In this document: piece after piece, positions 58,275-64,000 of the stretch
How the letters are laid out: the number at the start of each line of letters is the position of its first letter
How positions within the stretch are numbered: position 1 is the stretch's first letter
Assembly (NCBI GenBank): GCA_963704165.1
Contig: CAVPHD010000003.1
Coordinates: forward strand, 128,001 to 192,000
Reading direction: 5' to 3'
Source of the DNA: an uncultured delta proteobacterium
GTDB lineage: Bacteria; Myxococcota_A; UBA9160; SZUA-336
Length of the DNA: 64,000 nucleotides
The notes under the pieces: model-generated
The model's input: only the letters and a program-made list of their open reading frames with translations
Database searches by the model: none
What the model was told of the DNA's origin: nothing
Translations under genes and position numbers: made by a program

Positions 58275-60866
58275 TCAGTGCGGGCTGCGGGCCTGAGGGC
58301 CGACGCCGCTCTCCGCATCGAAGAGCATGCGGACGATCCCCGCGTGCCCATGGGCGCTCGCCAGCGTCGCCGCGGTCATGCCGTTGGACGTTCGCGCGTT
58401 CGGCGCGGCGCCGTTCTGCAGCAGGTACTGGACGATCTCGTCGTGGCCAGCGGCGGACGCATGGATCAGCGGGGTCCAGCCGTTCTCGTCGCGGGTGTCG
58501 GGTGCCGCGCCTTTCGCGAGCAGCGAGCGCAGATACGACACGTGGCCGTCTCGCGCGGCCTTCACGAGCGCCTTGTTCGAATCGTCTCGGCGGCGGCCCG
58601 CGGGGTCGGTGTCGGTCGGCAGCAGCGCGGCGAGCATGAGCGGCGTCCGTCCGTCGAGCCCTGCCGCGTTCGCATCCGCGCCCTTCTCGAGCAGCAGCAG
58701 TGCGAGCTGGCCATGACCGGCGGCGGTGGCGTAGAGAAGCGGAGACCAGCCTTGGCGATCCGAGAGGTTCGGATCCGCTCCGCTCTTGAGTAGAGCGCGG
58801 GCGGCATCGATGTGGCCCTCACGAACGGACCGGATCAGCGCCGTCTGGCCGTCGTCCGCTACGTCGTTCAGGTTCGCGCCCGCGGCCTGCAGCGTGAAGA
58901 TCGCGCGCACACGGCCCTTCCAAGCCGCGTACATCAGCGCCGTCTGACCGGTCAGGCTGCGATCGTTCACGTTGGCGCCCGCCTTGATCAGCGCGTTCAC
59001 CGCTGCAGCACGACCGTTCATCGCCGCGAACATCAGCGGGGTCTGTCCGTTGCGCGTGCGGCCGTTGGGGTCGGCTCCCGTGCGCAGGAGTTCGGCCATC
59101 ACCTCGATGTGACCCTCGCGTGCGGCGAGGACGAGCGCAGGCAAGCTCTTTCGATCCTTGGCGTTTGGATCGGCACCCGATCTCAGAAGCGAACTCAGGG
59201 TATCGAGCTGACCCATCTGCGCGGCGCGCGTCAGCGCGAGATCGCCCTGGGCGCCTCGAATGCTCTGGCTCGGGTCGCGCTCTAGAAGCAGCTCGACGAT
59301 CGACGTGTGACCCTCGCGGGCCGCGCGCGCGAGTGCACTCTGGCCGGTCTCGACGCCCGTGCGCGGGTCGGCGCCGGCCTCGAGCAGCATCCGGACGATC
59401 GGCTCGACTCCGTTCGCGGCGGCGGTCATCAGCGGCGTCGTGCCTGCATTCGTCGGTCGGTTGACGTCGGCGCCCGCGATGATCAGCTCCCGGACAACGT
59501 CGGTGCGGCCTTCGCTGACCGCACGGAAGAGCGGCGTCTGTCCGGCGTTGGTCGACTCGTCGATGGTGGCACCCGCGTTGATCAGCGCGGTCACGATCGC
59601 GACCTCTCCGGCGCGCGCAGCTTCGCCGAGCGCCGTGTGGCCACCATGGCTGACGGCGTCGAGATCGACGCCCTTCTCGATCATCTGCCGCAGCAGCTTC
59701 AGGTCGCCTCTGCGCGAAGCCTCGACGAAGAGATCGCTCGCGGCTTGCAACTCCGGAATCAGGACCGCGGGATCGGTCTGTGAGACGTCCGCACCCGCCT
59801 GGCGGAGAACCGACACGATCTCGCGGTGTCCTTCGCGCGCGGCGCGCTCGACGGCGGTCTGCCCGGCAGCGTCGGCTGCGTCGACTTCCGCACCGCTCTC
59901 GAGGAGCTTGCTCACGGTCTCGCTTCGCCCGCGCTCGGCGGCGAGCAGGAGAGCCGTCTTTCCTTCGGCCGATCGGGCATTGACGTCGGCGCCCTTGGCC
60001 AGCAGCGCCGAGATCAGCGTGGACGTCGTCGGCTTTCCGATCACGATCAGGTCGGGCTGAGCCATCGCGACCAGCGTCGTACTCGGCTCCGGCCGCGGCA
60101 GCGCTTCGAGCGCCCCGAGCAGGCTGGCGATGTCGTTGTGTTTCCTGCGCGATGCGTGGTCGCGCGCAGTCCGTCCCTCGTCGTCGATCGCGTTCGCATC
60201 GGCCCCGGCTGCGAGAAGCGCGCCAACGGTGTAGGTGCGTCCGGAGCCGGCGGCTCTCATCAGCGCCGTCACTCCCTCCTCGGAGCGTTCGTCCACGCGA
60301 GCGCCGGCCTTGACCAACACCTCGACGATGCGCGTCTTCCCGCTCTCCGCGGCGCTCGCGAGCGGCGTCTCGCCGCGCTCGCTCCGCAAATTGGGGTCGG
60401 CATTCGATTCGAGGAGAAGCCGGGCCAGCGGCAGGCGGCCCTCCGATGCGGCGAGATGAAGCGCGCCGATTCCCTCGGTGTTCTGCGCGTTGACCCCGAC
60501 GCCCCTGGCGAGGAGTTGCCGGGCGACCTCGAGATGCCCCCGCTCGCTCGAACGCATCAGCGCCGTGAAGCCCTGAACGTCCGCCGCGTGCGGGTCGGCT
60601 CCGGCATCGAGCAAGAGCCGGACGATCTCGTTGGACCCGGCTCGCGAAGCGATGATGAGCGCCGTCGCACCATCGGCGCCGCACGATTCGGTTGGAGCCC
60701 CGTCGGCAAGGGCCTTCCCGACACCGAGCACGTTGCGGACCCGCGCGGCCTCGAGCAGGTGCGCAGCCGGCACCGATGCGCTCGCCGTCCCCTCGGTTCC
60801 GGCCGCCTCGGCATCGGGCGCCGACAGGACGCCGATCAGCACGAATGTCAGGAGCAGTCGAACCAT
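58275..60866 (-). CDS. Secreted ankyrin-repeat protein (~25 repeats)
   Basis: Signal peptide MVRLLLTFVLIGVLSAPDAEA; repeated GxTPL..AA..G....V..LL..GAD.N units. Confidence 0.92.
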   Translation of the reverse strand: MVRLLLTFVLIGVLSAPDAEAAGTEGTASASVPAAHLLEAARVRNVLGVGKALADGAPTESCGADGATALIIASRAGSNEIVRLLLDAGADPHAADVQGFTALMRSSERGHLEVARQLLARGVGVNAQNTEGIGALHLAASEGRLPLARLLLESNADPNLRSERGETPLASAAESGKTRIVEVLVKAGARVDERSEEGVTALMRAAGSGRTYTVGALLAAGADANAIDDEGRTARDHASRRKHNDIASLLGALEALPRPEPSTTLVAMAQPDLIVIGKPTTSTLISALLAKGADVNARSAEGKTALLLAAERGRSETVSKLLESGAEVDAADAAGQTAVERAAREGHREIVSVLRQAGADVSQTDPAVLIPELQAASDLFVEASRRGDLKLLRQMIEKGVDLDAVSHGGHTALGEAARAGEVAIVTALINAGATIDESTNAGQTPLFRAVSEGRTDVVRELIIAGADVNRPTNAGTTPLMTAAANGVEPIVRMLLEAGADPRTGVETGQSALARAAREGHTSIVELLLERDPSQSIRGAQGDLALTRAAQMGQLDTLSSLLRSGADPNAKDRKSLPALVLAAREGHIEVMAELLRTGADPNGRTRNGQTPLMFAAMNGRAAAVNALIKAGANVNDRSLTGQTALMYAAWKGRVRAIFTLQAAGANLNDVADDGQTALIRSVREGHIDAARALLKSGADPNLSDRQGWSPLLYATAAGHGQLALLLLEKGADANAAGLDGRTPLMLAALLPTDTDPAGRRRDDSNKALVKAARDGHVSYLRSLLAKGAAPDTRDENGWTPLIHASAAGHDEIVQYLLQNGAAPNARTSNGMTAATLASAHGHAGIVRMLFDAESGVGPQARSPH

Positions 60867-61245
60867 GTACCTACCCGCTCTCGAGGCGCCAGGATGCCGA
60901 GCGTACCCGCAGCGATCGATCCTGCCGATCATGGGATTGCTCGGGCGCAGCGACATCGTCTTGGAATTGCTCAGGAAACGCATACCTCGCGGCCAGCCAC
61001 CCGGCGCCGCTTCCCGACGATCGCGGCGCCATTCTATCTCGCGTAGGTCGAAGCCCACAATCCCCCAGATCCCACCGTTCTCTCGACTAGAGTGACCGAA
61101 CCGAGAGTTCGGTGGCGATGCGCCGTCGCAGCGACCTTCCGAATCCCGCCTGGCGCTCGGGATCTTCGACCCGACCTGCCTACCCGCTGCGCACGGCCGG
61201 GACCCGGGACTTGTCCGATGCCCTGGTCTCGGCGAGCCTGCCGGG

Positions 61246-61470
61246 ATGAAGAAGATCTCGATCCAGTACTGCGTACGCTGAAACTACCTGCCACGGGCCA
61301 CCAGTCTGGCGGCCGAGATCGAGCAGAAACACGGCATCCAGCCGACCCTGATCAAGGGCGACGGTGGCGTCTTCGAGGTCGTCGTCGATGGGCGTCTGGT
61401 CTTCTCGAAGAAGGAAGCCGGCCGCTTCCCGACGCACGAGGAGATCCTCGCGGCACTCGCCCAGTGCTGA
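61246..61470 (+). CDS. SelW/SelT/SelH (Rdx family) selenoprotein, 74 aa, Sec encoded by TGA 61279-61281
   Basis: Read manually: MKKISIQYCVR-U-NYLPRATSLAAEIEQKHGIQPTLIKGDGGVFEVVVDGRLVFSKKEAGRFPTHEEILAALAQC. Rdx motifs I.YCxxU, GxFEV, FSK..GRFP. Confidence 0.9.
61296..61314 (+). promoter_or_regulatory. Putative bacterial SECIS hairpin
   Basis: GGCC-A-CCA-[GTC]-TGG-C-GGCC stem-loop; the apical loop starts with G after a 22-nt spacer from the UGA. Confidence 0.65.
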
Positions 61471-61476
61471 ACCCGG

Positions 61477-61584
61477 CTAGTCGCGTTCGCGAAGGACGGC
61501 GACGAGGCCGAAAATCACGGGGATGAAGAGCACGCCGCAAGTCGCGGCGAACATGTACATCAGGTGAAAGGCGTTCTGCTCCAT
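61477..61584 (-). CDS. 35-aa single-pass membrane micro-protein
   Basis: MEQNAFHLMYMFAATCGVLFIPVIFGLVAVLRERD; purine-rich RBS AAGGAAGAGG; starts 20 nt after the OFOR beta stop. Confidence 0.6.
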   Translation of the reverse strand: MEQNAFHLMYMFAATCGVLFIPVIFGLVAVLRERD

Positions 61585-61604
61585 CGAGATCCTCTTCCTT
61601 CGTC

Positions 61605-62642
61605 CTATACGTCCCAGCGATCGCCGGAGTAGAGCAACTGTTCGAGTGAACCCTCCCCGCGCGACGCCAGCTCCGCAGTTCTCTGCGCAAGGGCCTGATC
61701 CTCGAACGTCGGCTCCGACACCGCGCGCAGCACACCGATCGGTGTCGGGAACTCGGGAGGCGTGCAGCGCGCGAGCAGCATCGCGAGTCCGGGGTCCGGA
61801 TTCGCCTCGTCGTGCACCACCTCGACGCCCCCGTCCTTCTCGCCGAGCTTGCCGACGTAGAGTCGCATCCGCGCGGTGTCGAGCTTCACGCACTTCTCGC
61901 CATCCTTGCCGAACACGAGCGGCTTGCCGTCCTCGAGCTCGAGCAGGTGCTCCGATTTCGTGTCGCGGTCCTTCAGGCTCTCGTAGGCGCCGTCGTTGAA
62001 GACCGGGCAGTTCTGGTAGATCTCGAGGAAGGCGCTGCCCTTGTGGGCCGCCATGCGCGCGATCATCTCCTGCAGGTGCTGGAGCTCCGTATCGACCGCG
62101 CGCGCGACGAAGGTCGCCTCGGCCCCGAGCGCGAGCGAGAGCGTGCGGAACGGCCGTGCGATCGAGCCCCCCGGCGAGGACTTGGTCTTCATGCCGATCT
62201 CGGAGGTCGGCGAGAACTGACCCTTGGTGAGCCCGTAGACCTTGTTGTTGAAGAGCAGGATCTTCAGATCCACGTTTCGCCGCAGCGTGTGGATGATGTG
62301 GTTTCCGCCGATCGAGAGCGCGTCTCCGTCCCCGGTCACGACCCAGATCGAGAGATCGGGTCGCGCGAGCCTGAGCCCGGTCGCAATCGCCGGCGCGCGC
62401 CCGTGAATCGTGTGAAACCCGTACGTGTCCATGTAGTACGGGAAGCGCGAGCTGCAGCCGATTCCGGAGATGAAGACGATCTTCTCCTTCGGGATGCCGA
62501 GCTGCGCCATCACTTTCTGCATCTGCGAGAGGATCGCGTAGTCACCGCAACCCGGGCACCAACGAACGCCTTGGTCGCTCTCGAAATCCCGCTTGCTCAG
62601 CTTCGCGGGAGCCTGGCCAAGATCGTTCTGCGCGACACTCAT
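61605..62642 (-). CDS. korB: 2-oxoacid:ferredoxin oxidoreductase beta subunit
   Basis: WCPGCGD, SGIGCSSR, HGRA, GDGD...NN TPP motif, YGLTKGQ.SPT, QNCPVFN. Substrate specificity not determined. Confidence 0.93.
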   Translation of the reverse strand: MSVAQNDLGQAPAKLSKRDFESDQGVRWCPGCGDYAILSQMQKVMAQLGIPKEKIVFISGIGCSSRFPYYMDTYGFHTIHGRAPAIATGLRLARPDLSIWVVTGDGDALSIGGNHIIHTLRRNVDLKILLFNNKVYGLTKGQFSPTSEIGMKTKSSPGGSIARPFRTLSLALGAEATFVARAVDTELQHLQEMIARMAAHKGSAFLEIYQNCPVFNDGAYESLKDRDTKSEHLLELEDGKPLVFGKDGEKCVKLDTARMRLYVGKLGEKDGGVEVVHDEANPDPGLAMLLARCTPPEFPTPIGVLRAVSEPTFEDQALAQRTAELASRGEGSLEQLLYSGDRWDV

Positions 62643-64000
62643 GCGTGCAACTCCCTCGAGGCCGCGGCGGGAAGGAGATCCCGGACGGCCGCGACCACTT
62701 CGCGCACCTTGAACGGCTTGCCCTGGACCTTGTTCAATCCGTGCGCATCGACGAGGAACTTGTCGCGCAGGATCGAGCGGAGCTGGCCGCTGTTGAGCTC
62801 CGCGACGAGCACGTGGCGATAACGCGCGAGCAGCGCTCCGACGTTCACCTGGAGCGGGCTCAGATAGCGGATGTGGAGATGGCCGACCGCGTGCCCCTCG
62901 GCCTGAAGCTGGAGCGCCGCCTGGCGCAGCGAACCGTACGTGCCGCCCCAGCCGACGATCAGCACGTCGCCCGCGGGCGGGCCATCGATCTGCGCGGGCG
63001 GCAGACGCTCCGCGATCTTGTCGATCTTCGTCTGGCGCATCCGGGTCATGTGCTCGTGGTTCTCGGCCTCGTAGGAGATGTCGCCGGTGACGTCTTCCTT
63101 CTCGATGCCACCGATTCGATGCTCGAGACCGGGCGTGCCCGGGACCGCCCAGGGACGAACGAGCCGCGCATCGCGACGGAAGGGCTCGAAGCCCTCGGGG
63201 TCGGTTCGGAAGGCCGTCTTGATCGGGACGAGCTCGTCGAGCGCGGGCAAACGCCAGGGCTCCGCTCCGTTCGCGAGCGAGCCGTCGGACAGATAGGCGA
63301 CCGGGCACATGTGCTCGATGGCGATCCGCACGGCCTGCACCGCAAGGTCGAAGCAGTCCGCGGGCGTCGCGGGAGCGACCACCGCGATCGGGCTCTCGCC
63401 ATTGCGCCCGACGATCGCCTGGAGAAGATCCGCCTGCTCGGTCTTCGTCGGCATGCCGGTCGAGGGTCCGGCACGCTGAACGTTCAGGACCACGAGGGGA
63501 AGCTCGACCGAGACTGCGAGGCCGATCGCCTCCTGCTTCAGCGCAAATCCCGGACCCGAGGTGCCGGTCACGCCGATCGAGCCACCGAACGAAGCGCCGA
63601 TCGCCGCCGCGACCGCTGCGATCTCGTCCTCGGCCTGAAACGTCGAGACTCCGTAGCGCCCGTATGCCGCCAGGTTGTGAAGCACGTCCGAGGCGGGCGT
63701 GATCGGATAGCTCGCGTACAGGATCGGCAGGTTCGCGAGCTTGCCCGCCGTGACGAGCCCGAGCGAGGTGGCCTCGTTCCCGGTGATGTTCCGATAGTGC
63801 CCGGGGCCGAGGCTCGCGGGCGGAATGGTGTAGGTGGAGTCGAAGAGCTCGAGCGTCTCGCCGAGGTTGTAGCCGGTCTCGAAGACCTTCACGTTCGCGG
63901 TGCCGAACTCGGGGTTCTTCGCGAACTTCTTCTGGATCGATTCGATCTCGCGCGCGGGCTCGCGACCGTAGAGCCAGAACAGCAGGCCGAGCGCGAAGAA
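62639..64000 (-). CDS. korA: 2-oxoacid:ferredoxin oxidoreductase alpha subunit (5'-truncated by the window edge)
   Basis: ITGNEA, YPITPASD, QAEDEIAA, TSGPG, QRAGPSTGMPTK.EQ.D, HRIGG.EK, ELN.GQL. Confidence 0.93.
   Translation of the reverse strand, partial: FFALGLLFWLYGREPAREIESIQKKFAKNPEFGTANVKVFETGYNLGETLELFDSTYTIPPASLGPGHYRNITGNEATSLGLVTAGKLANLPILYASYPITPASDVLHNLAAYGRYGVSTFQAEDEIAAVAAAIGASFGGSIGVTGTSGPGFALKQEAIGLAVSVELPLVVLNVQRAGPSTGMPTKTEQADLLQAIVGRNGESPIAVVAPATPADCFDLAVQAVRIAIEHMCPVAYLSDGSLANGAEPWRLPALDELVPIKTAFRTDPEGFEPFRRDARLVRPWAVPGTPGLEHRIGGIEKEDVTGDISYEAENHEHMTRMRQTKIDKIAERLPPAQIDGPPAGDVLIVGWGGTYGSLRQAALQLQAEGHAVGHLHIRYLSPLQVNVGALLARYRHVLVAELNSGQLRSILRDKFLVDAHGLNKVQGKPFKVREVVAAVRDLLPAAASRELHA

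Follow-up and report, generated by a model that had tools for sequence, protein, structure and literature searches.

The window – the whole 64,000-nucleotide stretch of DNA analysed here – carries a real SelW-like gene whose internal TGA is very likely read as selenocysteine (Sec) with the aid of a conserved RNA hairpin. We are highly confident in assigning this gene to 61246-61470 (+) and in attributing the decoding of its UGA as Sec to SelB acting on the hairpin at 61296-61314. The elements of the gene are as follows.

61246-61470 (+): SelW-like (Rdx family) selenoprotein gene of 74 codons plus stop; ATG at 61246-61248, TGA at 61468-61470
61270-61281 (+): redox motif C-V-R-U (Cys9, Sec12), which in the predicted fold links strand 1 (residues 4-9) with helix 1 (residues 15-29)
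61279-61281 (+): in-frame UGA, predicted selenocysteine codon (codon 12), second position of C-V-R-U
61296-61314 (+): SECIS-like hairpin of 4 bp, an A.C mismatch and 3 bp; loop GUC at 61304-61306

Read through its internal TGA, the frame yields a product of 74 residues, MKKISIQYCVRU NYLPRATSLAAEIEQKHGIQPTLIKGDGGVFEVVVDGRLVFSKKEAGRFPTHEEILAALAQC, from a start that is common to three congeners. The earlier note had drawn attention to this gene as one missing from the track of open reading frames and indeed, nothing in that frame is listed at a minimum length of 40 aa. Its placing of TGA 61279-61281 on the second redox position of C-V-R-U is confirmed in the sequence and kept across orthologues. 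A scan of 61000-61700 for promoters and terminators returned no promoter-like sites and one weak terminator-like site on the minus strand within the SelW-like gene.

With Sec entered as Cys, the read-through product exceeds the curated score cut-offs set for three family profiles: PF10262 (Pfam Rdx; E 9.4e-21, 74.2 bits versus a cut-off of 22.6), NCBIfam NF041051 ('SelT/SelW/SelH family (seleno)protein'; 95.9 versus 88 bits) and NCBIfam TIGR02174 (61.6 versus 34.2 bits). PF10262 was formerly numbered PF05169, and TIGR02174 and NF041051 are the models named CXXU_selWTH and SelTWH_Campy, respectively. The best sequence match in the PDB is Atu0228 from Agrobacterium (2fa8; E 1.1e-10), followed by proteins from Streptomyces (3dex), Bordetella (2ojl), Pseudomonas (2oka, 2obk) and Vibrio (2p0g) and by human MIEN1 (2ljk). 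An AlphaFold model, computed from an alignment of 30 sequences, has a pLDDT of 89.4 and the order strand-helix-strand-strand-strand-helix; all 30 aligned rows are invariant in the CxxU column (C, or U read as C). When this model was used as a Foldseek query, TMq reached 0.91-0.92 with 2fa8 and 2ojl, and thioredoxins and glutaredoxins ranked far below the SelW-related proteins. The model thus predicts a SelW-related thioredoxin-like fold for the product, and the Rdx/SelW membership proposed in the earlier note stands by family profile as well as by SelW-related PDB matches in both sequence and fold. The bacterial structures among these matches are Cys-type Rdx proteins which share the fold (TMq 0.81-0.92) and the position of the redox motif with our candidate but differ from it in having CxxC, about 100-108 residues with extensions, 27-39% identity and no need for a SECIS. 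The stop-free paralogues of selA-less congeners (see below) are of this Cys-type Rdx kind. Mouse SelW (2npb) and MIEN1 likewise have the thioredoxin-like Rdx fold, their CxxU or CxxC being placed where strand 1 meets helix 1; in contrast to mouse SelW, for which TMq is lower (0.67), the hairpin in the window is placed inside the open reading frame just past the UGA.

Orthologues occur in 25 of 40 related genomes, at identities of 51-82% and with exactly one TGA each; together with the sequence from the window, the CxxU column is TGA in 26 of 26, and amino-acid conservation extends to both sides of the TGA in all of them, down to 51% identity, these related genomes not being independent samples. 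Cys forms do exist in the same column, since stop-free paralogues in four congeneric or family genomes read CxRC there, and the database proteins P0003 and P0012 read CxxC. So the expectation in the earlier note that Rdx homologues would have either Sec or Cys at this site is borne out by the alignment, with TGA in the orthologues and Cys in the CxRC paralogues. A wider scan – one genome per species, 112 relatives returned and 80 kept, from Myxococcota, Eisenbacteria, Planctomycetota, Acidobacteriota, SAR324, Binatia, Desulfobacterota and others – placed TGA at the CxxU position in 80 of 80 loci, a figure that is, along with the conservation of the motif, biased to Sec forms by peptide patterns that included the hairpin-encoded stretch (NYLPRATS).

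Among relatives with a name, the closest are MAGs assigned to Myxococcota and Myxococcales. Most database relatives are fragments of 44-62 residues that start past the TGA, and in six the Sec column is recorded as W. Among such public calls, which either start past the TGA or show W at the Sec position, are P0002, P0006, P0004, P0005, P0010, P0013, P0019 and P0029; a 62-residue 'Rdx family protein' from a Myxococcales MAG is an example of a start past the TGA. Selenoprotein genes commonly end up in one of these two ways when they are annotated automatically. A search for sequencing runs returned none that contains the stretch, the best share being 0.06 of sampled words, and among 72 contigs of relatives from four environmental runs (likeness of at least 80%) no other letter was found at 61279-61281 (10% threshold). 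These contigs are from relatives at 80-95% likeness and many of the alignments start exactly at the TGA and stop after the hairpin; as the runs were found using the SelW stretch, the UGA and the hairpin are covered by choice and the depth says nothing on habitat or expression, nor does the one RNA run among the four (X23) amount to proof of transcription. Taken at the level of sequence, the comparison indicates that TGA 61279-61281 is neither an error nor the sign of a pseudogene.

The hairpin past the UGA has the stem GGCC-A-CCA / UGG-C-GGCC and starts 14 nt past this codon. The GC-rich stem with a G-initiated apical loop that the earlier note had described is found as claimed, with the loop G 22 nt past the last base of the UGA and a helix that is conserved and covarying. 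On its own, the stability of the hairpin is unremarkable in GC-rich DNA and not significant: the 67-nt fold reaches -21.3 kcal/mol (z -1.36; matched by 22 of 200 shuffles) and the 29-nt fold -11.5 kcal/mol (z -1.71; matched by 6 of 200). As a consequence of this non-significant folding of the single sequence, the SECIS claim rests on comparison only. Among the 26 orthologues, 89.4% of hairpin cells are paired as opposed to 23-48% with a shifted partner, four of the eight hairpin pairs have changed on both sides, none of 500 shuffles reaches any of five measures and RNAalifold gives the same helix. When 81 sequences are compared, 45 hairpin cells have changed on both sides and covariation is 0.221 versus 0.064 in shuffled alignments, a value as high in none of 500. 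Pair 21-33, for example, which joins the third positions of two Ala codons, is C-G in 54 of these 81 sequences, G-C in 14, U-A in 6 and A-U in 4, and pair 18-36 is G-C in 50, A-U in 6, C-G in 6 and G-U in 4. Position 22-32 mostly keeps the A.C mismatch and is G-C, A-U or U-A in 14 of 80.

Two of the compensations are non-synonymous, with Glu in place of Ala where the facing Ser codon has U as its first base. Synonymous variation is suppressed in the six hairpin codons (6-11): their third-position entropy is 0.24-0.62, as against 1.15-1.90 for invariant four-fold codons in other parts of the gene and 1.48-1.62 for the two spacer codons, Leu3 and Pro4. Despite high GC, 25 of 26 sequences use the GC-poor codon AGT for Ser8, which preserves GU in the loop, and in the set of 81 the loop never varies at G26 and keeps U27 in at least 90%. 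An Rfam search of 61150-61600 with E up to 10 gave only two chance snoRNA matches (E 4.4-4.5). To our minds, the comparative support for the predicted hairpin is strong and convincing.

Decoding of the UGA would require the Sec machinery, which the earlier note had predicted to be complete (selA, selB, selC and selD). This prediction stands for selA (508.6 bits), selD (334.3 bits, on the contig of the window) and a tRNA-Sec(UCA) (72.9 bits; called tRNA-SeC with anticodon tca by ARAGORN); selB is also present but comes split over two frames. Listed below are the selD locus, which lies outside the window, and further frames with in-frame TGA in the same genome; in these coordinates the window itself is G000:C3:128001-192000.

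L010:1393-2436, TGA at 2392-2394 (G000 contig C3:421287-422210, outside the window) (-): selD, by profile match
TGA at C7:167372, C9:338700, C1:384254, C5:23912 and C2:119981: AhpC/TSA-family (Prx-like or Trx-like) TGA frames

The selB match (281.8 bits) is above the TIGR00475 cut-off and has all of the domains GTP_EFTU, Beta-barrel_SelB and SelB-wing_3. Compared to congeners G007 and G010, there is a 1-base insertion near L002:2940 (L002:2929-2949; contig C1 at about 287,240-287,260), due to which GTP_EFTU and Beta-barrel_SelB are in one frame and the SECIS-binding SelB-wing_3 is in the +1 frame. If this frameshift were real, Sec could not be inserted. We consider the insertion to be probably an assembly indel, because the assembly is only 84% complete despite its 12 contigs, because a second rpoB-rpoC locus, on contig C5, is in frameshifted pieces and because the other Sec genes are undamaged. 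As for the rpoB-rpoC genes, there are two loci: the one at C9:121758-129896 is intact and the one at C5:300885-308814 is in five (rpoB) plus three (rpoC) pieces in different frames. Either this contig is rich in errors or it comes from a second organism in the bin.

The selD match has one in-frame TGA of its own (PGGG-U-ARK), followed by a strong SECIS-like hairpin with a fold of -31.9 kcal/mol (z -3.14) and the loop GUU; selD is itself a selenoprotein gene. Both it and the SelW-like gene have a UGA followed by a GC-rich hairpin whose 3-nt loop begins with GU (GUU and GUC, respectively), and the two hairpins, sharing this loop, would be read by the same SelB. They differ in that selD has the longer stem (an upper helix of 9 bp), the more distant loop (27 as opposed to 22 nt past the UGA) and a much stronger fold. 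Moreover, 5 of 17 AhpC/TSA matches each have one in-frame TGA at a UxxC- or TxxU-type position (W-U-P-P-C, TPG-U-T, W-U-P-F-C, W-U-G-C and G-U-I-F-C) and then a hairpin, which in one case shares the CCAGUUUGG apex with many of the SelW orthologues. These five frames are candidates for further selenoproteins. A molybdopterin (formate-dehydrogenase-type) match with a TGA at C9:60890 was rejected as a selenoprotein, its translation near the stop being of low complexity and out of character.

Consistent with dependence on this machinery, the distribution of the TGA form among genomes goes along with that of selA. Above its cut-off, selA is found in 30 of the 40 other genomes, and TGA-form SelW in 25 of these 30 and in none of the 10 without selA; this is to be taken as consistency rather than as a statistical test, kin not being independent. 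The ten selA-less genomes are 73-99% complete and four of them carry only the CxRC paralogue, and the search for the TGA form gave none in five genomes that do have selA. Within the genus of the window the Sec trait is patchy: selA and TGA-form SelW occur together in 4 of the 11 other genomes (G001-G011), and neither was found in the remaining seven (completeness 74-96%), three of which carry only the CxRC paralogue.

Can the TGA be accounted for in other ways? Standard gene callers read it as an ordinary stop and the predominance of post-TGA fragments among database relatives is in keeping with this, in which case we would be looking at a dead gene or a chance frame with an untranslated downstream part. 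We find this hardly credible, given that conservation flanks the TGA on both sides in every one of the 26 orthologues and that the TGA falls between the redox Cys, on its upstream side, and the rest of the modelled fold, downstream; no pseudogene would retain a single TGA, always in the same column, in different phyla. An error of sequencing or assembly in what is really a TGC or TGT Cys codon might be suspected from the indel problems elsewhere in the assembly. Such an error would, however, have to be a substitution, in an assembly whose visible errors are indels, and it would have to recur, as TGA is present in all orthologues from independent assemblies and the 72 environmental contigs have no other letter at these positions; we regard its probability as negligible. 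Equally, there is next to no room for a UGA read as Trp, Gly or Cys via a deviant code or near-cognate read-through. The six database relatives in which the TGA was called as Trp would fit with it, but the gene has TGA as its own stop, at a length that matches its relatives, the genome has a dedicated tRNA-Sec as well as selA and selD, and the TGA form is seen only in selA-bearing genomes. Besides, a conserved and covarying hairpin past the codon would be needless for a reassigned codon, and it is Cys, not Trp, that the family profile and the paralogues have in this column.

Another scenario takes the selB frameshift at face value: the genome would have just lost Sec decoding, UGA would terminate and the SelW-like gene, like selD, would be a relic that is not expressed at full length. 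The 1-base insertion relative to two congeners, which leaves the SelB domains in two frames, speaks for it, as does the patchiness of the Sec trait in the genus (selA in 4 of 11 other congeners), which fits with the repeated losses described in the part of PMC1794560 that is concerned with the Sec trait. On the other hand, no other damage is seen in selA, selD, tRNA-Sec, the SelW-like gene or the five Prx-like TGA genes, and with frameshifted essential genes elsewhere in the assembly (rpoB-rpoC on C5; 12 contigs, 84% complete) indel errors are the simpler reading. We therefore judge such a recent loss to be very unlikely and favour SelB-dependent Sec insertion at the UGA.

Sec insertion at this UGA may be envisaged to proceed along the bacterial route. 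SelD would make selenophosphate, with which SelA would turn Ser-tRNA-Sec into Sec-tRNA-Sec, and SelB-GTP loaded with Sec-tRNA-Sec would bind the apical GU-containing loop through its C-terminal winged-helix domain and hand over the tRNA once the ribosome meets the UGA, which precedes the stem by 14 nt. Translation to the end of the frame would yield a thioredoxin-fold protein of 74 residues with Cys9-x-x-Sec12 at the N-terminal end of helix 1. Cys9 and Sec12 may form a pair that cycles between the selenol/thiol and the selenenylsulfide states, and the protein is predicted to be a small thiol-dependent oxidoreductase.

In the sections that deal with this family, the Sargasso Sea survey by Zhang, Gladyshev and co-workers (PMC1088965) ranks SelW-like first in abundance among the selenoprotein families of its data set, with 48 genes, and calls its function unclear. 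The same sections describe the bacterial SECIS feature as a stem-loop directly 3' of the UGA whose small apical loop has a G, and, by way of background, the eukaryotic SECIS as one that is located in the 3' UTR and acts with SBP2 and eEFSec. In the corresponding part of their work on complete genomes (PMC1794560), Zhang, Gladyshev and co-workers found SelW-like in ten bacterial genomes including Geobacter, Desulfotalea and Symbiobacterium, and few Cys homologues in Sec-using organisms; the table given there lists Anaeromyxobacter dehalogenans, its sole myxobacterium, without SelW-like. As far as these parts of the two papers (PMC1088965, PMC1794560) describe bacterial SelW-like selenoproteins, our candidate is like them in its length (about 70-80 residues), its CxxU motif, its in-ORF SECIS with G in a small apical loop and in having Cys homologues that are rarer than the Sec forms. 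It differs only in its host, an uncultured Myxococcota-like genome. The gene thus adds a member to an established family, one familiar from bacteria for twenty years, and is nothing different in kind; correct but ordinary, it holds little surprise and raises no new question in selenoprotein biology. Its main value is one of annotation, as gene callers miss the SelW-like gene, truncate it past the UGA or read the UGA as Trp, and the predicted proteome then lacks the redox motif. Along with the Sec-containing selD and the five Prx-like TGA genes, the SelW-like gene marks this uncultured Myxococcota-like organism as an active selenocysteine user.

Finally, the earlier note had thought a redox-protective link to the convergent korAB genes conceivable. 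The genes next to the SelW-like gene on that side are the following.

61477-61584 (-): small hydrophobic ORF of 35 codons, conserved and convergent; tblastn matches of 50-92% identity in 9 of 25 loci from relatives
61605-62642 (-): korB (2-oxoacid:ferredoxin oxidoreductase beta subunit, TPP-binding domain), convergent; PF02775, E 8e-29
62639-63892 or beyond (-): korA, upstream of korB, from the list of open reading frames

The names korA and korB are those of the earlier note and are backed here only by the TPP domain and the gene order. In its most developed form, the idea would make the SelW-like selenoprotein a redox protector dedicated to the oxygen-sensitive 2-oxoacid:ferredoxin oxidoreductase in this Myxococcota family: korA-korB, the 35-residue membrane peptide and the SelW-like gene would be kept tail-to-tail, with overlapping 3' ends through which both transcripts might be co-regulated. 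We think this very doubtful. Being on opposite strands, the SelW-like gene and korAB are not co-transcribed, and their adjacency is confined to the family of the window itself: korB is found within 1.5 kb of SelW in 8 of 25 relatives' loci, all from that family, and the arrangement recurs in 2 of the 80 cross-phylum loci, the two closest. The proposed link was not upheld, and from the tblastn comparison of korB and the small ORF with the relatives' loci we rejected adjacency as evidence of function, taking it for local synteny only. The small ORF, whose stop is 6 nt from that of SelW and which lies 20 nt downstream of korB, is context outside the selenoprotein system; a Pfam search with its 35 codons gave no family, and a purine-rich, Shine-Dalgarno-like stretch precedes its ATG. 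On the other side, upstream of and divergent from the SelW-like gene, 58275-61058 (-) encodes a protein of 927 residues, composed of ankyrin repeats nearly throughout (Ank_2, 563.7 bits), that has about 70% identity in three congeners.
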